A stretch of 64,000 nucleotides of DNA from assembly GCA_038870635.1 (NCBI GenBank), contig JAVZJR010000001.1, forward strand, positions 90,133 through 154,132. Direction: 5' to 3'. The notes under the pieces are model-generated. The model saw only the letters and a program-made list of their open reading frames with translations. It did not search any database and was not told where the DNA came from. Position 1 is the stretch's first letter, and each line of letters starts with the position of its first letter. This DNA comes from Candidatus Bilamarchaeaceae archaeon (GTDB lineage Archaea; Micrarchaeota; Micrarchaeia; Anstonellales; Bilamarchaeaceae). This document shows positions 2,084 to 34,844 of this stretch, piece after piece. The translations under genes were made by a program, and so were the position numbers.

Positions 2084-2167
2084 GCTGGGGTCGCCTAGTC
2101 CGGTAGGGCGGCAGGTTGCTAACCTGTTGCGCGTAAGCGTTCGGGAGTTCAAATCTCCCCCCTAGCG
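2084..2167 (+). tRNA. tRNA-Ser (anticodon GCU), class II with long variable arm
   Basis: 7-bp acceptor stem GCTGGGG/CCCTAGC, anticodon stem-loop GCAGG-TTGCTAA-CCTGT, long variable arm, T-arm GGGAG-TTCAAAT-CTCCC, discriminator G; oligo-T follows. Confidence 0.8.
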
Positions 2168-2176
2168 CTTTTTTAA
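2168..2176 (+). terminator. Oligo-T run after tRNA-Ser (archaeal-style terminator)
   Basis: tttttt directly 3' of the tRNA. Confidence 0.4.
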
Positions 2177-3262: not shown

Positions 3263-4525
3263 TTAATCACTTTGCTTTTTTCCTAATTCGCTTATCTTTC
3301 TAAAACCTAACTGCTGCTGCACAAAAACATATAATCCACTTGGCACATTTCTGTTGACGACAACACCAGAGTGTATCCAGCAATTAGGTCCGATAAGTTT
3401 TCCTGGCATAACAGAAGCTAACACGCCAAACTTAACATTATCGCCAACTATAGCACCGAGTTTTCTTCTGCCACTATTAACCCAACCACGCTCAGTGGAA
3501 ACATTGACATTTCCCTCATCAAAACGAAAATTGGCAAGTTGAGTTCCTGCTCCAAAATTAACATTTCTACCAATGACACTATCACCTATATATGCAAGAT
3601 GCTTCGCGTCTACTTCATCAAAAATAACACTTTCTTTTACTGTAACAGATTCACCAATGCAACAGTTATCCCCTATTGAAGTAGGGCCACGAATATATGC
3701 ATTTGGGCCTATAATGGTATTTTTTCCGATATAAACATCTCCCTCAACATAACTGTTTATTATTCTCGCACCTTCTTCCATAATTACTTTACCAATTATA
3801 GTAGAGTTTTGTATGTCGCCTGCTTTTGGTTCCAACCTGGCCAGCATCTCCTTGTTAGCCTCAAGAAGATCCCAAGGATAACCAACATCCCACCAATAAC
3901 CTTCAACTTCAATTGCTTTTGCACCTACAAGTATATCAGTAATTTCGTACTCACCTCGGGATGAGGGCTTGATATCATTTAACCTCTCAAAAACAGATGG
4001 CTCCATGCAATATATGGAAAGATTCGCAAGATTGCTTCGTGGATTTTTTGGTTTCTCTTCTATATAACTTATTCTTCCATCCACAACATCTACAATGCCA
4101 TATTTCTCAGGTTTATCTACTTTTTTTAGAGCCACTGTTATGTTGTTGCCCCCTGCCTTATGCGTTTCTAAAAGTTTTTTTATTATAGAGGAATCAAAAA
4201 GAAGATCGCCTGCGACAACTATAAAAGTATCATCTACTTTACCTTCGGCCGAAAGCAACGCTGCGGCAGTCCCATTTTCTTTTCCCTGTTCTACAACAAA
4301 CAAACGAAAACCAAACTGTTGCTGAAGAGAAGAAACATAAGCAATTATTTGTTCTTTTTTCTCGCGAACAACAAAAACAAATTCATTGACCCCTGCTGCC
4401 ATAAGCTCTTTTATCTGATGATAGGTTATTGGCTTTCCTGCTACTGGAAGTAAACATTTAGGGCGTGTTTCTGTAAGCGGCCACATTCTTACGCCATTAC
4501 CCGCCGCCATTATTATAGCTTTCAT
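3263..4525 (-). CDS. Bifunctional sugar-1-phosphate nucleotidyltransferase / acetyltransferase (GlmU/ST0452-like)
   Basis: N-terminal MKAIIMAAGNGVRMWPLT NTP-transferase G-loop, C-terminal left-handed beta-helix hexapeptide repeats; start moved to the internal ATG behind a GGTGGGAGA SD (track ORF extends to 4621). Confidence 0.7.
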   Translation of the reverse strand: MKAIIMAAGNGVRMWPLTETRPKCLLPVAGKPITYHQIKELMAAGVNEFVFVVREKKEQIIAYVSSLQQQFGFRLFVVEQGKENGTAAALLSAEGKVDDTFIVVAGDLLFDSSIIKKLLETHKAGGNNITVALKKVDKPEKYGIVDVVDGRISYIEEKPKNPRSNLANLSIYCMEPSVFERLNDIKPSSRGEYEITDILVGAKAIEVEGYWWDVGYPWDLLEANKEMLARLEPKAGDIQNSTIIGKVIMEEGARIINSYVEGDVYIGKNTIIGPNAYIRGPTSIGDNCCIGESVTVKESVIFDEVDAKHLAYIGDSVIGRNVNFGAGTQLANFRFDEGNVNVSTERGWVNSGRRKLGAIVGDNVKFGVLASVMPGKLIGPNCWIHSGVVVNRNVPSGLYVFVQQQLGFRKISELGKKQSD

Positions 4526-4577
4526 TCTCCCACCAAAAAAACTATTTGCAAGAAGTGATTTATAATAATTTGCAACA

Positions 4578-5663
4578 CTACCTGTTAAAATATATAAGCT
4601 CGTAAAGCTTTTCTCTATCAAGCTTATCTAAAAATTCTTTTTTTATTTTAATAAACGTTTCATTATCTAATGGTGTTTTTTCTTTTTTAGAATCTGCAGA
4701 TTGGCGAAGAGATTTTGCTCTTATTTGTATATTTTCCTTTGAGGCAGGAGGTTGTCCTGGTCCGCCCACGCAACCAAAAGGACACATCATAATTTCAACT
4801 AGATGGTAGGTTTGGCCAGCTTTAATTTCCTCGTATAGCTTTTCAAAATTAGGCAGACCGTGTACTATCGCTATATTTAGAATATGTTTTCCTATCTTCA
4901 CTGTTTTTTTTCTTATTTCACCATTATCCCTAAAATCAGTTATCTCGATTTTCTCCCCATACATTTGGGCGAGGGTAGTAATTATTGCTTCTGTAACGCC
5001 TCCGGTAGCTCCAAAAACCACTCCATCTTTTGAGCTATTCGGCATAAAAGAGGAAAATTTATCTTCTGGCAAGCTGTTAAAATCTATTCCTTTTTTCTTT
5101 GCCCATTGCGCAAGTTCTACAGTAGTAACAACATAATCAACATATCGATTACCATTCCTCATAACTTCTAGTGTTTCATATTTTTTAAGAGCACATGGCA
5201 TTACACCAACTATTATTATGTCTTCTGGTTTTCTATTCAATTTCTCCGCAAAATAATACTTTGCCACTGCCCCTATTGTCATTTGTGGTGATGCAACAAT
5301 AGTTATATTACCTAAAAGTTCTGGATGCATCTTTCCCGCATACATTCGCCAGCCGATGCAACAGGAATTAAAAATCGGAAATTTTCCTCCTCCATTGTCT
5401 AATCTTTCCTTTAAATCTTCGGCTTCATAATAAGTACTTATATCTGCACCAAGTGGGGTATCCACCACTTCTTGAAAACCGAGTTTTTTTAGCAGTGTTA
5501 TCGCCTTTCCTTCCACGTTTGTGCCCACTGGAAAGCCAAACAACTCCCCTAATGCAACTCTAACAGCAGGAGCAAGTTCTGCTATCACAATCTTTCCGCT
5601 CTTCATTTCATTTTCTATTTTTTCAAAAAGTGCATCACCATAAATAATTCTGTCATTGGCCAT
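4578..5663 (-). CDS. hydA: [FeFe]-hydrogenase catalytic H-domain protein, minimal form with no accessory FeS domains
   Basis: All three H-cluster signatures present: FNSCCIGW (L1, TSCCPxW-like), MPCALKKYE (L2, MPCxxKxxE), EIMMCPFGCVGGPGQP (L3, ExMACxxGCxxGGGQP); also APAVRVALGELFG and FGATGGVTEA, colinear with Clostridium CpI / Chlamydomonas HydA1 core. Confidence 0.75.
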   Translation of the reverse strand: MANDRIIYGDALFEKIENEMKSGKIVIAELAPAVRVALGELFGFPVGTNVEGKAITLLKKLGFQEVVDTPLGADISTYYEAEDLKERLDNGGGKFPIFNSCCIGWRMYAGKMHPELLGNITIVASPQMTIGAVAKYYFAEKLNRKPEDIIIVGVMPCALKKYETLEVMRNGNRYVDYVVTTVELAQWAKKKGIDFNSLPEDKFSSFMPNSSKDGVVFGATGGVTEAIITTLAQMYGEKIEITDFRDNGEIRKKTVKIGKHILNIAIVHGLPNFEKLYEEIKAGQTYHLVEIMMCPFGCVGGPGQPPASKENIQIRAKSLRQSADSKKEKTPLDNETFIKIKKEFLDKLDREKLYELIYFNR

Positions 5664-6541
5664 TACATCTTCCTCAATCTTGTGATTCTTTCATCTATTG
5701 GTGGGTGAGTAGAAAATAATCCCGCCGCTTTTTTGAATGGATCAGCGATAAAAAGAGACGCAGTAGTCTCGTTTGCAGCTTGCATTTTATATGGATAAGC
5801 TTTTATTTTTTCAAGTGCTCGCGCAAGCCCTTCTGGATAACGAGTAAGCTTTGCTGCATTTGCGTCTGCTAAGTACTCTCTTTCACGCGATATCGCCATC
5901 CTAATAAAAAAAGCAATGAGTGGCGCGATTATCATGAAAATAAGGCCCAAAATCAGTAGAAAACCGCTGCCTTTTTTATTATCTCTCCCCCTGCCCCAAA
6001 AGAAAGTTCTTAAGAAAATTTCAGAGATAAGACCGATTGCGCCAACAAGAGCAACTGTGAGCATCATAAAACGAATATCATAGTTTGCTATATGCGAGAT
6101 TTCATGCGCGAGGACACCTGCAAGTTCTTCTTTTTTCATGCTATCCAACAAACCAGTTGTTACTGCGATTGCAGAATGTTGCGGATCTCTTCCAGTTGCA
6201 AAAGCATTTGGAAAAGGGTCGTTTATTATATATATCTTTGGAGTCGGTATTCCTGCGGCCATTGCAAGACCTTCCACAACATTATAGATATATGGATTAT
6301 CTTGGTGTTTTAGCTCTTTAGCACCACTTAGTGCAAGAATAACTTTATCACCTGCGTAATATGCTCCAAGGATATAAATTATAAGAATTATAAAACCAAA
6401 AACATAACCACAAATCCCATAATCTAACACTTCGGATATTATATATATTAGGATTAAAAAAATAAGAACAACAGCAAAAATAAGAAGAAGGGAATTTCTT
6501 TTGTTTTGCTCGATTGCATCAAAAAAACTTACTTTTTCCAT
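5663..6541 (-). CDS. htpX: HtpX-like M48 zinc metalloprotease (membrane)
   Basis: HEISHI HExxH motif with four TM segments; GGTGA SD. Confidence 0.8.
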   Translation of the reverse strand: MEKVSFFDAIEQNKRNSLLLIFAVVLIFLILIYIISEVLDYGICGYVFGFIILIIYILGAYYAGDKVILALSGAKELKHQDNPYIYNVVEGLAMAAGIPTPKIYIINDPFPNAFATGRDPQHSAIAVTTGLLDSMKKEELAGVLAHEISHIANYDIRFMMLTVALVGAIGLISEIFLRTFFWGRGRDNKKGSGFLLILGLIFMIIAPLIAFFIRMAISREREYLADANAAKLTRYPEGLARALEKIKAYPYKMQAANETTASLFIADPFKKAAGLFSTHPPIDERITRLRKM

Positions 6542-6558
6542 TTTAGAAAATCACCGTT

Positions 6559-7158
6559 TTAATCAAATTTTACCTTTACTGCTTCTTTTTCTGTTGCAGC
6601 TGCTTCAAACAATGGTTCATGCTTAAAACCAAAGATACTAGCAATTATGTTGCTTGGGAAAACATCACATGCTGTATTAAATTCATATACTGCGTCATTG
6701 TACGCTGTCCTTATATAAGATATTTTATCTTCTGTACCTGTAATTTCATCTTGCAATTTTTGGAAATTTTCGCTTGCGCGAAGTTGGGGATAATTCTCTG
6801 CAACCGCAAAAATAGATTTTAATGTAGCAGAGAGTACATTGTTAGCCTTTGCTCTTTCTTCAACATTCCCACTTATGAGTTGTGCGCGTAATTTCGTGAT
6901 TTCCGTTAGAGTTGCTCTTTCGTGTTTCATATAACCCTTTACGGTTTCTACAAGATTCGGTATGAGGTCGTATCTTCTTTTAAGTTGGACGTCAATTTGC
7001 GCCCAAGCGTTTTTTACTCTATTTCTTAGGGTTATCAAACGATTATAAACCATTACAACATATGCAAGAATTACAACTAACAAAGCACCAATACATAAAA
7101 CAGCTGTACTAGCCAGACCCAATCCAAATAATTCAAAAGCCATATCCACCACCAGCAA
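6559..7158 (-). CDS. lemA: LemA family membrane protein
   Basis: N-terminal TM followed by conserved LemA core (YNRLITLRNRVKNAWAQIDVQLKRRYDLIPNLVETVKGY). Confidence 0.75.
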   Translation of the reverse strand: MLVVDMAFELFGLGLASTAVLCIGALLVVILAYVVMVYNRLITLRNRVKNAWAQIDVQLKRRYDLIPNLVETVKGYMKHERATLTEITKLRAQLISGNVEERAKANNVLSATLKSIFAVAENYPQLRASENFQKLQDEITGTEDKISYIRTAYNDAVYEFNTACDVFPSNIIASIFGFKHEPLFEAAATEKEAVKVKFD

Positions 7159-7194
7159 TATAATAACAAATAGTTTAATTAATACATAATATAA

Positions 7195-7515
7195 TTATTC
7201 TATTGAAGAACTACAAAATTTGCAGATTGATACGTATTTTTCGTATTCATTAGCGCACACAGGGCAAACATAAATAAAGCGTACAGATTTTTCAGAAGCA
7301 AGATTGTAACCGCACTTTGTGCATCTCCCATTATCAAGTTCGTTTAAAGAACCACATTTAGGGCATTTTCGTGCTATGATGTTATGTAGATTAAACCCAC
7401 ATTTAGCGCACCTTTCTGATGAGCTTTCACATTCCGCTCCGCACTTGGGACAGGAAAAGTAATATATCGCTTTCTTTGGACCAAAGATACTACTCAAAAA
7501 ATCAAAAAAACCCAT
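7195..7515 (-). CDS. Small protein with three double-zinc-ribbon modules
   Basis: Three repeats of CPxCG…CxKCG spacing in 106 aa. Confidence 0.4.
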   Translation of the reverse strand: MGFFDFLSSIFGPKKAIYYFSCPKCGAECESSSERCAKCGFNLHNIIARKCPKCGSLNELDNGRCTKCGYNLASEKSVRFIYVCPVCANEYEKYVSICKFCSSSIE

Positions 7516-15852: not shown

Positions 15853-16785
15853 ATGCAACAAAAAATAAAAGACGAAATAAAAGACATAAAATCTCTAAAA
15901 ATACAAGGAGCGAGAAATGTTGCAAAAGCAGCGTTAGATGCTCTAATTTTGCAGGCAAGACTATCAAAAGCAAAAAACATCCATTATTATGTAAAAGAAC
16001 TAACAGCAGTAAAGGAAATTTTAGCTTACTCGAGACCAACGGAACCTATGATGAGAAACCTCTTAGATGACGCAATAGATTTCTTAGTCGTAGAATCAAA
16101 AAAAGTAAAAAGTATGGATGAATTGCGAGAGATCTTTGTAAGAAGAGAAAAAGAAGTTATAGAAAGATTAGACCAAGATGCTAAAAAAATATATGAATAT
16201 GGTGCAAGATTAATACCCAAAGGTTACACAGTAATGACGTATTGCCACAGTTCTACTGTGACTGGTATACTAAAAAAAGCAAGAGAAAAAGATAGAACAC
16301 TTAAAGTAATAGTGTGTGAAACAAGGCCGCGATACCAAGGAAGAATAACAGCAAAAGAGCTAGCAGAAGCTGGCATAGATACCACTCTTATAGTAGATGG
16401 TGCAGTAAATATGTTTATGAAAAAAACCGATCTTGTACTTGTTGGGGCAGATTCTGTTACAAGCAGGGGCGACCTCATAAATAAAGTCGGCACCTCCACA
16501 TTAGCCCATATAGCTAGAATGCATGATGTTTCTTTTTATTCTGCAGCAGAACTCTTTAAGTACAGTAGAAAAACATTTGAAGGAGAACTTGAAAAAATAG
16601 AAGAAAGAGATAAAAAAGAAGTATGGGAAGACGCCCCTAAAAAAGTAAAGATAAGGAATCCTGCTTTTGATGTCACTTCTGCAAAATACATCAATGGTTA
16701 TATAACAGAAGTTGGTGTAATCCCACCTCAATCTTTTTTTGCGCTAGCAACTGAAAAGTTAGGATTGAAAATATTTGGAAGGTGA
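15853..16785 (+). CDS. e2b2: eIF-2B alpha/beta/delta family isomerase, probably ribose-1,5-bisphosphate isomerase
   Basis: eIF2B-like fold with Cys (TYCHSSTV) and Asp (GADSV) at the catalytic positions; sits immediately upstream of AMP phosphorylase. Confidence 0.6.
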   Translation: MQQKIKDEIKDIKSLKIQGARNVAKAALDALILQARLSKAKNIHYYVKELTAVKEILAYSRPTEPMMRNLLDDAIDFLVVESKKVKSMDELREIFVRREKEVIERLDQDAKKIYEYGARLIPKGYTVMTYCHSSTVTGILKKAREKDRTLKVIVCETRPRYQGRITAKELAEAGIDTTLIVDGAVNMFMKKTDLVLVGADSVTSRGDLINKVGTSTLAHIARMHDVSFYSAAELFKYSRKTFEGELEKIEERDKKEVWEDAPKKVKIRNPAFDVTSAKYINGYITEVGVIPPQSFFALATEKLGLKIFGR

Positions 16786-16790
16786 GAAAG

Positions 16791-18407
16791 ATGGTAAATA
16801 AAAATAATGAAAATATAAATAACGATAAAAAGAAAAACGACAATAACAAAATTTTTGTAGAAAAAGAAACAACGAAAGTAGATGTTTGGAGAATAAAGAA
16901 ATATGTGTGTAAAGTAAAACCAATAGGAATTTATACAGGTAAAAACATAATAGTGCTAAACAAAACGCAAGCAATGGGACACGATATATACGAAGGCTAT
17001 CGAACAATATTGAAAAAAAATAGCACAGAAATAGTAGCAATAGTAGACGTTAGCGATGAGATAGTAAAACACGGAGAGGTTGGTGTTTATTCCGATATCG
17101 CAAAGGAATTTGGACTTAAAGAAGGTGACACAGTAGAAATAGTGCACATGGACCAACCTGATTCAATAGCATACATAAAAAAGAAATTAAATAAGGGAAC
17201 GCTTAGTGAGCATGAAATAAAAACAATAGTAAACGAAATAATGCGAAACGAATTAAGCGAAATAGAAGTGTCGGCTTGGATAACGGCTGCTTACATCAAT
17301 GGTTTTTCAGATGATGAGATAGTAGCACTAACTAATGCAACAGTGGAATCTGGAGAACGTTTGGAACTCGGAAAAAAACCAGTTGTAGATAAACATTGTA
17401 TAGGAGGAGTTGCTGGAAACAGAACTACCATGATAGTAACTCCAATAATAGCTGCCGCTGGTCTTTATATACCTAAAACATCTTCACGAGCGATAACATC
17501 CGCGGCTGGGACTGCAGACACAATGGAAGTTCTTTGCAATGTAACATTCAATATCCATGAGTTGAAAGAAATCGTACTAAAAACACATGGTGCGATGGTA
17601 TGGGGCGGCGGAATGAAACTTGCCCCTGTGGATGATAAACTCATAAGAATCAGACACCCATTAAGCTTGGATCCAGAGGGAATGTTATTGGCGAGCATAC
17701 TCGCGAAGAAGAAAGCAGTGGGCGCAGAATATGTTATAGTTGATATTCCAGTCGGACGCGGTGTTAAAGTACCATACTACGAAAAAGGACAAGAATTAGC
17801 TAAACATTTCCTTAGAATAGGAAATCAACTTAACATGAAATTAGAGGTTCTGATAACGGATGGTGCTGAACCTATAGGACAAGGTATCGGACCTGCATTA
17901 GAATGTATAGATGTTCTAAAAGTTTTATCTGGCGAAGGCCCAGAAGATCTTAAACACAAATCCCTTTTAATGGCTGGAAAATTGCTTGAGTTAACTGGTA
18001 AAGTAGGAAAAGATGAAGGTTACAAAGCAGCTGAAGAAATTCTACTTTCTGGGAAAGCGCTTAGGAAATTCTTAGAAATAGTAGAAGCGCAAGGCGGAAA
18101 CCCAAACGTAAAGATAACAGATATCCCTGTTGGTCAGTATACTTATACTGTAAAGGCTCAAACAAAAGGGACTATTTACCATATTGATAACCACACAATA
18201 GCAAAAATAGCAAGAATAGCAGGCGCACCCCGTTCGAAAGGTGCTGGCGTTTTACTTCATAAAGCACGAGGTGATAGAATAGTCCCTGGCGATCCATTAT
18301 TCACGATATATGCTGAAAGCGAGCAATCTTTAGATTATGCAATAAAGGCACTTGAAAAAATAGAACCAATAGAACTCAGAAAGATGCTTCTTGGCACAAT
18401 GATGTAA
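16791..18407 (+). CDS. deoA: AMP phosphorylase (thymidine phosphorylase family with N-terminal extension)
   Basis: DKHCIGGVAGN and SAAGTADT pyrimidine-nucleoside-phosphorylase motifs plus a ~90-aa N-terminal extension typical of archaeal AMPpase; GGAAGGTGAGA SD before the ATG. Confidence 0.7.
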   Translation: MVNKNNENINNDKKKNDNNKIFVEKETTKVDVWRIKKYVCKVKPIGIYTGKNIIVLNKTQAMGHDIYEGYRTILKKNSTEIVAIVDVSDEIVKHGEVGVYSDIAKEFGLKEGDTVEIVHMDQPDSIAYIKKKLNKGTLSEHEIKTIVNEIMRNELSEIEVSAWITAAYINGFSDDEIVALTNATVESGERLELGKKPVVDKHCIGGVAGNRTTMIVTPIIAAAGLYIPKTSSRAITSAAGTADTMEVLCNVTFNIHELKEIVLKTHGAMVWGGGMKLAPVDDKLIRIRHPLSLDPEGMLLASILAKKKAVGAEYVIVDIPVGRGVKVPYYEKGQELAKHFLRIGNQLNMKLEVLITDGAEPIGQGIGPALECIDVLKVLSGEGPEDLKHKSLLMAGKLLELTGKVGKDEGYKAAEEILLSGKALRKFLEIVEAQGGNPNVKITDIPVGQYTYTVKAQTKGTIYHIDNHTIAKIARIAGAPRSKGAGVLLHKARGDRIVPGDPLFTIYAESEQSLDYAIKALEKIEPIELRKMLLGTMM

Positions 18408-29994: not shown

Positions 29995-30091
29995 AATGTA
30001 ATATTATGTTAATACATTTTATAAACCTGACTACCACTTAAAAAACCAAAAGAATTTTAATCTAAAATGGCATAAAGAGGCAGGTGGGTTG

Positions 30092-31684
30092 ATGGAAGAA
30101 TTCAGTGAAAAAGAAAAAGAAATACTTCTAAAATTTGTAAGCAATACTGACAGAGATATATTTGTGCTAAAAAATCTGCCAGAAGTGGTAAAAGGAGCTC
30201 TTTTTTCTAGGTATAGTAGAAGCAGTAAAAGTTTGAGACGGCTTTTACTTGATGAATTTATAGAAAACAAAGATCTTGATATAAGACAACTTGCCAGTGA
30301 TACAAAAGATGACATAGTACTCACAAAAAAGGCCGAGGAGTTTTACGACCGTGTCTTGCTTGGTTTTGGTGATGATTCTGTTGCAGAACTCGCAGGAGCA
30401 CACATAGCACTTGAAAATATATCTATCATAGCAACTAAAGTAGTAGAGGACAACCGCATAGGAATTTCTCCACTTGAAAAATCTACTCGCTATGTTTATT
30501 TTGACAAAAAAGTGGATGGAAAATGGTTATACTACCGCGAACCCACACTTATGGAGAATATGCCAGAAGAGTACACAGAAGTTTGCGAAAGATGTTTTGA
30601 AACTTATGCTAGATTAATCTCTAATATATCAAAATATGTAAGTGAGAGACTCGAACGAGGAGAACTAAGTGAAAGAGCATATGAAGCAGTTGTAAGGGCA
30701 AAAACTTGTGATGTATTACGAGGACTTTTGCCTGCCAGTACACTAACAAACGTTGGGCTTTTTGGTAATGGCAGGGCTTTTGAATATCTTATAACAAAAC
30801 TCTACGCGAGTAATTTAGTCGAAATAAGAAATCTGGCGGCGACGATGGAGAATGAACTTAAAACAGTCATACCTTCATTTGTAAAAAGAGCAAGCGAAAA
30901 ACATGGAAAAGAAATGCGCGATTACATAAAAGCAACTACAGAGAGAACCAAAGCACTTGCACCGCATGAGCGTTCAGATGCAGCAGATATTGTAAGGATA
31001 ATTGATTACGAAAAAAATGCCTACCAAAAAGTTATTGCGGCGATTCTTTACCCGTATAGTGAACTATCACTTGAAGAATTAGAGAAAAGAGCAGAAATGC
31101 TGAGCGAAGAAGAGATAAGGAAAATAATCACTACCCATCTTGGAGAGAGAAAAAATAGAAGACACAAAGGAGGGAGAGGATTCGAAAGAATCTATTACAC
31201 ATTTGAAATATGCACTAATTTTGGTGCGTATAGAGATTTGCATAGACATAGAATGCTAACACAGCAAAGGCAACTTCTCACTACGAACTTGGGTTATGAT
31301 ATCCCTCACGAAATAGTAGATGCAGGATACGAAAAAGACTTTAAAGATGTAATGGAGGTTGCAAAAAACAACTATGAATTAATAGCAAATAAGTATAAAG
31401 AAGAAGCGCAATACGTAGTACCTTTAGCCTATCGCATCCGCTGGATGATAACAATGAATCTGCGAGAGGTATACCATCTTTGCGAAATAAGAAGTACACA
31501 ACATGGACACAGAGATTACAGAAAGGTTGCACAAGAAATATACAAAAAAATAAAAGAGACTCACCCATTACTGGCAGAGGGAATGATGGTTGACATGAAT
31601 GAATATGAATTTGAAAGATTGGAAGCAGAGAAAAAAATTGACAAAAAAATAGAGAGCATAAAACAAAAGTATAATAAGGTATAA
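30092..31684 (+). CDS. thyX: Flavin-dependent thymidylate synthase ThyX, long (~530 aa, two-lobed) form
   Basis: YRDLHRHRM ThyX signature in the C-terminal half and a ThyX-like N-terminal half; AGGTGGG SD; ATG at 30092. Confidence 0.7.
   Translation: MEEFSEKEKEILLKFVSNTDRDIFVLKNLPEVVKGALFSRYSRSSKSLRRLLLDEFIENKDLDIRQLASDTKDDIVLTKKAEEFYDRVLLGFGDDSVAELAGAHIALENISIIATKVVEDNRIGISPLEKSTRYVYFDKKVDGKWLYYREPTLMENMPEEYTEVCERCFETYARLISNISKYVSERLERGELSERAYEAVVRAKTCDVLRGLLPASTLTNVGLFGNGRAFEYLITKLYASNLVEIRNLAATMENELKTVIPSFVKRASEKHGKEMRDYIKATTERTKALAPHERSDAADIVRIIDYEKNAYQKVIAAILYPYSELSLEELEKRAEMLSEEEIRKIITTHLGERKNRRHKGGRGFERIYYTFEICTNFGAYRDLHRHRMLTQQRQLLTTNLGYDIPHEIVDAGYEKDFKDVMEVAKNNYELIANKYKEEAQYVVPLAYRIRWMITMNLREVYHLCEIRSTQHGHRDYRKVAQEIYKKIKETHPLLAEGMMVDMNEYEFERLEAEKKIDKKIESIKQKYNKV

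Positions 31685-32619: not shown

Positions 32620-34820
<2,201 letters not shown>

Positions 34821-34844
<24 letters not shown>

Follow-up and report, generated by a model that had tools for sequence, protein, structure and literature searches.

The hydA gene and its neighbors

The hydA gene lies on the minus strand of the window (the whole 64-kb stretch of DNA analyzed here), with a GlmU-like gene downstream of it and an HtpX and LemA pair upstream. The features of this neighborhood, in the order of their coordinates, are:

3263..4525, minus strand: GlmU-like sugar-1-phosphate nucleotidyltransferase/hexapeptide protein, 420 aa in the GenBank call (NTP_transferase, E 8e-44, plus Hexapep)
4526..4577, minus strand: 52-nt spacer after the hydA stop codon, with a run of seven T residues, followed by GGTGGGAG and the start codon (ATG) of the downstream gene
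4578..5663, minus strand: hydA, ATG start, 361 aa; predicted H-domain-only [FeFe] hydrogenase of minimal group A1/M1 architecture
5663..6541, minus strand: HtpX-like membrane Zn-protease (Peptidase_M48, E 5.3e-35; HEISH motif)
6559..7143, minus strand: LemA-family membrane protein (Pfam LemA, E 4.2e-60), 194 aa as called in public assemblies
7195..7515, minus strand: double zinc-ribbon protein of 106 aa (Pfam DZR/Zn_Ribbon_1), upstream of lemA

The TAA stop codon of htpX overlaps the ATG of hydA (TAATG), and lemA, which is located 17 nt upstream of htpX and is itself preceded by an AT-rich, TATA-like stretch, is the first gene of a putative lemA–htpX–hydA transcription unit. Judging from this arrangement, hydA is probably translationally coupled to, and co-transcribed with, the lemA–htpX pair. 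The run of seven T residues in the spacer that follows hydA is a possible archaeal terminator. The order lemA–htpX–hydA is kept in relatives whose HydA proteins are 66–75% identical to that of the window (loci L004, L005/6, L011/12, and L013) and is not kept in relatives at 48–51% HydA identity (L007, L008, and L009), a distribution that suggests a clade-specific operon. The presence of lemA–htpX beside hydA may simply be inherited synteny rather than a sign of a functional tie to the membrane protease pair. A double zinc-ribbon gene is also found near the cluster at L002, L003, L004, L012, and L013.

A preliminary description of the locus had placed hydA between these same GlmU-like and HtpX/LemA neighbors and in an archaeal host, and both statements hold, the former on the strength of Pfam matches on either side of the gene. 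Judged by its gene content, the window is archaeal housekeeping DNA throughout: it carries genes for S6e, aIF2-gamma, the RFC small subunit, DnaK/DnaJ/GrpE, an ATP-dependent DNA ligase, a Cdc48-like AAA protein, and ProRS, as well as for AlaRS, diphthamide synthase, PAC2, SecD/F, riboflavin genes, an e2B-like isomerase, and an AMP-phosphorylase-like protein. Immediately outside the window on its left side, a public contig (L001 14475-16740) encodes a NifS-like/NifU_N pair together with a ZIP transporter.

The HydA protein is not new. An identical sequence is already in GenBank (MEM3422129.1 and others, from "Candidatus Bilamarchaeaceae" MAGs) under the name [quoted passage not shown] and the enzyme class to which it belongs was described, and shown to make H2, in 2024. 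The Bilamarchaeaceae belong to the Anstonellales, within the Micrarchaeia of the DPANN kingdom Nanobdellati (PMC8561730). The contigs that encode the identical protein (JAWAMZ..., JAVZFN...) fall within the accession range JAVYKE–JAWCTO, which belongs to a study of archaeal MAGs from Tengchong geothermal springs; the presence of group A [FeFe] hydrogenases in Micrarchaeia was already noted in that study (PMC11094006). The preliminary description had called such enzymes rare in archaea; within its own lineage the family is not scarce: more than 100 clusters (at 90% identity) of HydA-family proteins of 320–400 aa are found in Micrarchaeota and Iainarchaeota.

Family membership, active site, and fold of HydA

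The hydA product has a computed mass of 40.4 kDa and a computed pI of 7.6. It matches the Pfam profile Fe_hyd_lg_C with an E value of 1.9e-72 over the whole of the profile (positions 1–245 of 245); this is its sole Pfam domain, and no PAS or signaling domain is present. Hydrogenases in the PDB match with E values from 1e-69 to 1e-59, and the sequence matches to HydA1 of T. kivui HydABC (E 9e-69), to D. desulfuricans DdH, and to residues 212–570 of CpI each run as one colinear stretch. Thus, the colinearity with the CpI catalytic core proposed in the preliminary description is upheld. The HMMER match to C. reinhardtii HydA1 (PDB 3lx4, 6gm5) is in two stretches because of insertions in the algal protein. 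Among the NCBIfam models, those for group A gave 282 bits (TIGR02512) and 308 bits (the A6 model), as against 130 bits for the group B1 (monomeric) model; all of these scores lie below the curated full-length cut-offs because HydA is without the N-terminal F-domains that those models expect. By these profile scores, HydA appears to have a greater sequence affinity to group A than to group B, C, or E.

HydA contains exactly five cysteines: four are ligands of the H-cluster and the fifth is that of the proton relay. Since all five are at H-cluster or relay sites, no accessory cluster would be bound. The match to CpI begins at residue 212, and F-cluster domains are absent from the 361 residues. 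The presence at the locus of HydB/HydC, GltD, or formate-dehydrogenase partners would indicate subgroup A3, A2, or A4, respectively; no gene for HydB/HydC (NuoF/NuoE-like), GltD, or a formate-dehydrogenase partner was found among the approximately 60 ORFs of the window. With no accessory FeS cluster and no partner genes within the window, HydA is assigned from its sequence to the M1 architecture, as the preliminary description had it, and to subgroup A1.

To map individual residues, we aligned HydA with residues 252–574 of CpI, whose sequence was validated against PDB 1feh/1c4a (35% identity over 302 aligned residues), and for counts of conservation we used a set of 111 database homologues of 320–400 aa. 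The sites of interest are:

5403..5426, minus strand: proton-transfer helix, with E80, D83, and R87 corresponding to E279, E282, and R286 of CpI
5349..5372, minus strand: L1 motif FNSCCIGW (aa 98–105), with C101 and C102 corresponding to CpI C299 and C300
5301-5303, minus strand: T121, equivalent to CpI S319
5175..5201, minus strand: L2 motif MPCALKKYE (aa 155–163), with M155, C157, K160, and E163 corresponding to CpI M353, C355, K358, and E361
4749..4796, minus strand: L3 motif EIMMCPFGCVGGPGQP (aa 290–305), with M292, C294, and C298 corresponding to CpI M497, C499, and C503

All three signatures that the preliminary description had read in the protein are therefore present, and their chance occurrence is ruled out, the match being far beyond chance. 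The alignment confirmed the four cluster ligands and the proton-transfer cysteine: C102, C157, and C294 are the ligands of [4Fe-4S]H, C298 is the cysteine that bridges [4Fe-4S]H and [2Fe]H, and C101 is the relay to the adt amine. K160 takes the place of the lysine that contacts CN- and E163 that of its partner. The pocket around [2Fe] is likewise kept, with F217, P126, and Q127 (CpI F417, P324, and Q325) in addition to M155 and M292, and S125 aligns with CpI S323. Along the proton pathway there are two conservative changes, from S319 to T (T121) and from E282 to D (D83).

L2 and L3 agree exactly with the signatures MPCxxKxxE and ExMxCxxGCxxGxGQP. L1 departs from the canonical TSCCPxW at two positions (T to N at N99 and P to I at I103) while keeping S-C-C-x-G-W, and this variant is the norm in the family, with N in 96 and I in 92 of the 111 homologues and the cysteines in every one. 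Invariant throughout the set are all five cysteines, K160, M155, M292, E163, and F217; if P126 is included, the pocket and relay residues C101, K160, M155, M292, F217, and P126 are invariant or nearly so. The relay positions are more variable: E80 is found in 108/111, position 83 is E in 54 and D in 31, position 121 is S in 65, T in 27, and C in 15, and R87 is present in only 13/111. A relay cysteine beside the first ligand separates the catalytic groups A and B from the sensory-type groups. Such conservation of the [2Fe] pocket across the 111 sequences is difficult to account for unless H-cluster binding is under selection.

An AlphaFold2 model of HydA, built from a 56-sequence alignment, had a mean pLDDT of 93.3 and a pTM of 0.92. 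In Foldseek comparisons the model matched the H-domains of CpI, DdH, and the HydA subunits of HydABC (T. kivui HydA1) with query-normalized TM scores of 0.90–0.91 (0.91 for CpI) and an rmsd of approximately 2.1 Å. Model and alignment together show HydA to have a predicted hydrogenase fold with all of the residues that build the active site. We conclude that the window holds a real and intact gene of a tiny, symbiotic archaeon and that its product is a whole [FeFe]-hydrogenase H-domain without further domains, in confirmation of the core of the preliminary description, which had taken it for an M1-type [FeFe] hydrogenase in a DPANN genome.

How does HydA compare with known enzymes? [FeFe] hydrogenases have been found in nine archaeal phyla, among them a "minimal" group A1 with a mean length of 363 aa and an "ultraminimal" group E with a mean of 286 aa, both modeled as monomeric H-domains with a solvent-exposed H-cluster; in the archaeal enzymes all of the cysteine ligands are kept and the proton-transfer residues vary (Greening et al., Cell 2024, PMC11216029). 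The Micrarchaeota enzyme "Mu" (group A1; UBA95 sp002499405) was produced in E. coli and, once supplied with [2Fe]adt for maturation, gave H2 at roughly half the rate seen with a CrHydA1 lysate; "Ia" (Ca. Iainarchaeum andersonii) was some 100-fold less active than Mu despite their high similarity (PMC11216029). HydA resembles Mu and Ia in being, by prediction, a monomeric H-domain only, in its length (361 aa versus the mean of 363), in its group A affinity, and in its kept cysteines and varied proton-transfer residues; genomes that encode such A1 enzymes are usually without HydEFG, and Mu is from the same phylum as HydA. What sets the window apart from the published A1 clusters is the lemA–htpX–hydA unit and the lack of adjacent hyd6TM (see below) and OFOR genes.

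With C. reinhardtii HydA1, the classical M1 enzyme, HydA shares the H-domain-only architecture, the ligands, and the proton-relay cysteine. The algal enzyme, at whose [4Fe-4S]H ferredoxin docks directly, differs in being eukaryotic, plastid-targeted, matured by HydEF/HydG, and approximately 100 residues longer, with insertions. As compared with CpI (PDB 1feh, 4xdc), all of the first- and second-sphere residues that we checked are conserved, but CpI is extended at its N terminus by approximately 210 residues that carry four accessory FeS clusters (M3), and its L1 motif reads TSCCPGW instead of NSCCIGW. Finally, HydA resembles group E enzymes, such as Fm of Ca. Forterrea multitransposorum, in its DPANN host, its H-domain-only architecture, and its predicted single [4Fe-4S] plus [2Fe]; group E differs in its mean of 286 aa, its condensed loops, and its position as sister to the sensory group C, whereas HydA has 361 aa and is of group A. 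The preliminary description, which had invoked the ultraminimal forms of DPANN lineages, was thus right in seeing an H-domain-only enzyme in a DPANN genome and mistaken in the label, which belongs to group E and not to a minimal A1 enzyme.

Activity, maturation, and origin

From sequence, model, and analogy, we consider it very probable that HydA is a cytosolic, monomeric, H-domain-only [FeFe] hydrogenase (M1, group A1) of a geothermal-spring Bilamarchaeaceae archaeon and that it vents fermentative reductant as H2. On this proposal, C102, C157, C294, and C298 would bind [4Fe-4S]H, with [2Fe]H attached via C298 in a pocket lined by K160, M155, M292, F217, P126, and Q127. Protons would pass by way of R87, D83, T121, and E80 to C101 and from there to the adt amine, and electrons would be delivered by a soluble, low-potential carrier directly to a solvent-exposed [4Fe-4S]H. 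If HydA behaves like algal HydA1 and the archaeal A1 enzymes already published, the donor would most likely be ferredoxin reduced by a 2-oxoacid:ferredoxin oxidoreductase; ferredoxin-coupled fermentative H2 production has been proposed for the archaeal A1 enzymes (PMC11216029). The net effect would be the disposal of fermentative reductant as H2. Weighing against this reading are the departure of L1 from the canonical motif at N99 and I103, the two substitutions in the relay, the roughly 100-fold lower activity of the related enzyme Ia as compared with Mu, and the lack within the 64-kb window of a ferredoxin motif, PFOR/OFOR, or maturase.

The 64-kb window holds no genes for PFOR/OFOR, HydE/F/G, or NuoE/NuoF-type partners. 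The absence of HydE, HydF, and HydG had been remarked on in the preliminary description, and we likewise found no radical-SAM or HydF-like gene among the approximately 60 ORFs scanned; the radical-SAM motif CX3CX2C is absent from every ORF in the window of more than 150 aa, and a six-frame search of the window for the ferredoxin motif CxxCxxCxxxCP yielded nothing. It is because of these absences that we infer the electron donor and the maturation route.

Might HydA, then, be made but never supplied with [2Fe], persisting as an apo-like [4Fe-4S] protein with another role or none? The window contains no maturase genes, and most archaeal genomes that encode a hydrogenase are also without them, only 5/130 carrying the full HydEFG set (PMC11216029). 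We nonetheless regard this as very unlikely, given the near invariance of C101, K160, M155, M292, F217, and P126 among the 111 homologues and given that active enzyme is made without HydEFG by some eukaryotes and by "Ca. P. syntrophicum," an H2 producer in culture (PMC11216029). The preliminary description had held that a genome without maturases would cast doubt on catalysis. That inference does not stand: missing maturases are the rule in archaea and do not refute activity, artificial maturation has yielded active enzymes from genomes that have no maturases, and the small number of archaeal genomes with HydEFG implies an alternative maturation route (PMC11216029).

Very unlikely, in our judgment, is that an active HydA serves mainly in H2 uptake, or in redox or H2 sensing, instead of in fermentative H2 evolution. 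[FeFe] hydrogenases are bidirectional in vitro, and there is no PFOR or ferredoxin nearby to set the direction; but HydA is of group A and not of the sensory groups C/D, it keeps the relay cysteine, and it has no PAS or signaling domain. Moreover, Micrarchaeota of this kind are predicted to be obligate fermenters without respiratory reductases, and the archaeal A1, B, and E enzymes that were tested evolved H2, the group E enzyme Fm being biased toward proton reduction (PMC11216029).

Small size and the lack of F-domains would also fit a non-catalytic relative of the Nar1/NARF type or an ultraminimal enzyme of group E, and to both we assign next to no probability. A Nar1/NARF-like identity is excluded by the CpI alignment: the catalytic-pocket residues that are lost in Nar1-type proteins are all present, the relay is kept, and there is neither an N-terminal cysteine cluster nor any cysteine beyond the five. 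Group E is excluded by the length of 361 aa, by the scores of 282–308 bits to group A (group E proteins being of 286 aa and sister to group C), and by colinearity with the whole of the CpI H-domain, including the C-terminal small-subunit-like helices.

As to origin, the composition of hydA (GC 36.5%, GC3 26.5%) and its codon usage are well inside the distribution for the window, and its arrangement is identical in three independent assemblies; hydA is therefore native to the genome. The same typical composition led us to reject a recent horizontal transfer visible in composition. A scan of GTDB genome contigs with HydA returned a single match, an unrelated, 33%-identical locus in a "Gammaproteobacteria" MAG. 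That hydA is bacterial DNA misassembled or misbinned into an archaeal contig has a vanishingly small likelihood and is rejected: although the closest non-minimal relatives are clostridial-type enzymes (approximately 43% identity) and archaeal group A enzymes are thought to stem from lateral transfers (PMC11216029), the start of hydA overlaps the stop codon of htpX, archaeal genes flank it on both sides, neither its composition nor its codon usage stands out from the rest of the window, and its arrangement recurs in independent assemblies and in relatives at 66–75% identity.

A membrane protein beside mini-hydrogenase genes, and wider significance

In all seven of the relative contexts that we examined, a multi-pass membrane protein of 178–188 aa is encoded convergently to hydA. 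Searches with this protein of Pfam and NCBIfam produced no match. It is an uncharacterized membrane protein whose fold is that of the S components of ECF transporters; ECF S components are capture proteins for vitamins, cofactors, and metals. Presumably, it is "hyd6TM," a name that Greening et al. use only in figure legends (PMC11216029). A tblastn search at E < 0.1 found no hyd6TM in the 64-kb window, where its place is taken by the GlmU-like gene and a DUF460 gene, and of 127 hyd6TM homologues none appears attributable to contigs known for the species of the window. In Patescibacteria, we note, hyd6TM homologues are located directly upstream of, and overlapping, a gene for a Fe_hyd_lg_C protein of 258–259 aa in which the four cluster cysteines are kept and the proton-relay position is occupied by Pro. 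One could imagine that hyd6TM is part of a HydEFG-independent route by which genome-reduced symbionts acquire or deliver the H-cluster or a precursor of it, and that in the lineage of the window it has been moved elsewhere, lost, or superseded by some other membrane-linked arrangement, but we think this unlikely. The pairing of hyd6TM with mini-hydrogenases across domains could guide work on hydrogenase partners or maturation and lies outside the present window, and the interesting biology may perhaps reside in the partners (hyd6TM and lemA–htpX) rather than in the enzyme.

The minimal archaeal [FeFe] hydrogenases are the smallest natural group A catalysts for H2 and hence attractive scaffolds for engineering. 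They offer genome-reduced DPANN symbionts a one-gene route for the disposal of reductant as H2, and they work in organisms that do not have HydE, HydF, and HydG, an indication that the H-cluster is assembled there by some other route. These points were established for the class in 2024; the window adds one intact member with a slightly different neighborhood and no new principle. Its value rests on the class, that is, on the maturation route and the potential for engineering, and on the leads provided by the neighborhood, rather than on hydA as a discovery.

Gene order around hydA

The gene for the 361-residue, H-domain-only [FeFe] hydrogenase (hydA) is preceded in the window by three genes in its own orientation, and the stop codon of htpX overlaps the start codon of hydA in the sequence TAATG.

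Window 5663-7515 (-): zinc-ribbon gene, lemA and htpX (M48), followed by hydA

Among relatives whose HydA is at least 66% identical, the order lemA-htpX-hydA is kept and the outer flanks vary; in relatives at or below 51% identity the order is gone. On L001, a public contig that carries the hydA locus, a further group of genes lies just outside the window on its left side, about 6 kb from hydA and past genes for TFIIB and an HTH regulator.

L001 14475-16740: cysteine-desulfurase-like gene (Aminotran_5), NifU_N scaffold gene and ZIP metal transporter gene

These three genes could be a source of the [4Fe-4S] part of the H-cluster.

A hydrogenase-like gene pair in Patescibacteria

A homologue of hyd6TM, the multi-pass membrane protein gene found beside hydA in relatives, also occurs on two Patescibacteria (CPR) contigs, where it lies directly upstream of, and overlaps, an Fe_hyd_lg_C gene.

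L014 5001-6291: hyd6TM homologue and Fe_hyd_lg_C gene
L015 5001-6304: hyd6TM homologue and Fe_hyd_lg_C gene

The Fe_hyd_lg_C product, at 258-259 residues, is smaller still than the HydA of the window. It has five cysteines, and all four that align with the cluster ligands are retained; the proton-relay cysteine is replaced by proline, and leucine aligns with the methionine of the third H-cluster motif (M497 of Clostridium pasteurianum CpI). The protein is hydrogenase-like, and the pairing with the same membrane protein thus recurs in a second domain of life.

Other genes of the window

Window 2084-2168 (+): tRNA-Ser(GCT)
Window 15853-18407 (+): e2B-like gene (IF-2B family), then a 541-residue AMP/thymidine-phosphorylase-like gene
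Window 30089-31684 (+): ThyX (Thy1) protein, 531 residues, two matched stretches
Window 32620-34844 (+): DHBP synthase, a 294-residue DMRL_synthase protein and GTP cyclohydrolase II

The tRNA gene is the sole RNA gene that ARAGORN and Rfam (gathering threshold) turned up in the 64 kb. The IF-2B family is that of ribose-1,5-bisphosphate isomerases, and in the pathway by which archaea salvage AMP and nucleosides the e2B-like and phosphorylase-like genes account for two steps. A type III RuBisCO is what this pathway usually supplies; a RuBisCO was not seen anywhere in the 64-kb window. The ThyX protein is about twice the usual length, which points to duplication or fusion of a flavin-dependent thymidylate synthase. 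The 294-residue protein of the riboflavin set contains two lumazine-synthase (DMRL_synthase) matches, and so compact a riboflavin gene set is noteworthy in a genome-reduced DPANN archaeon.
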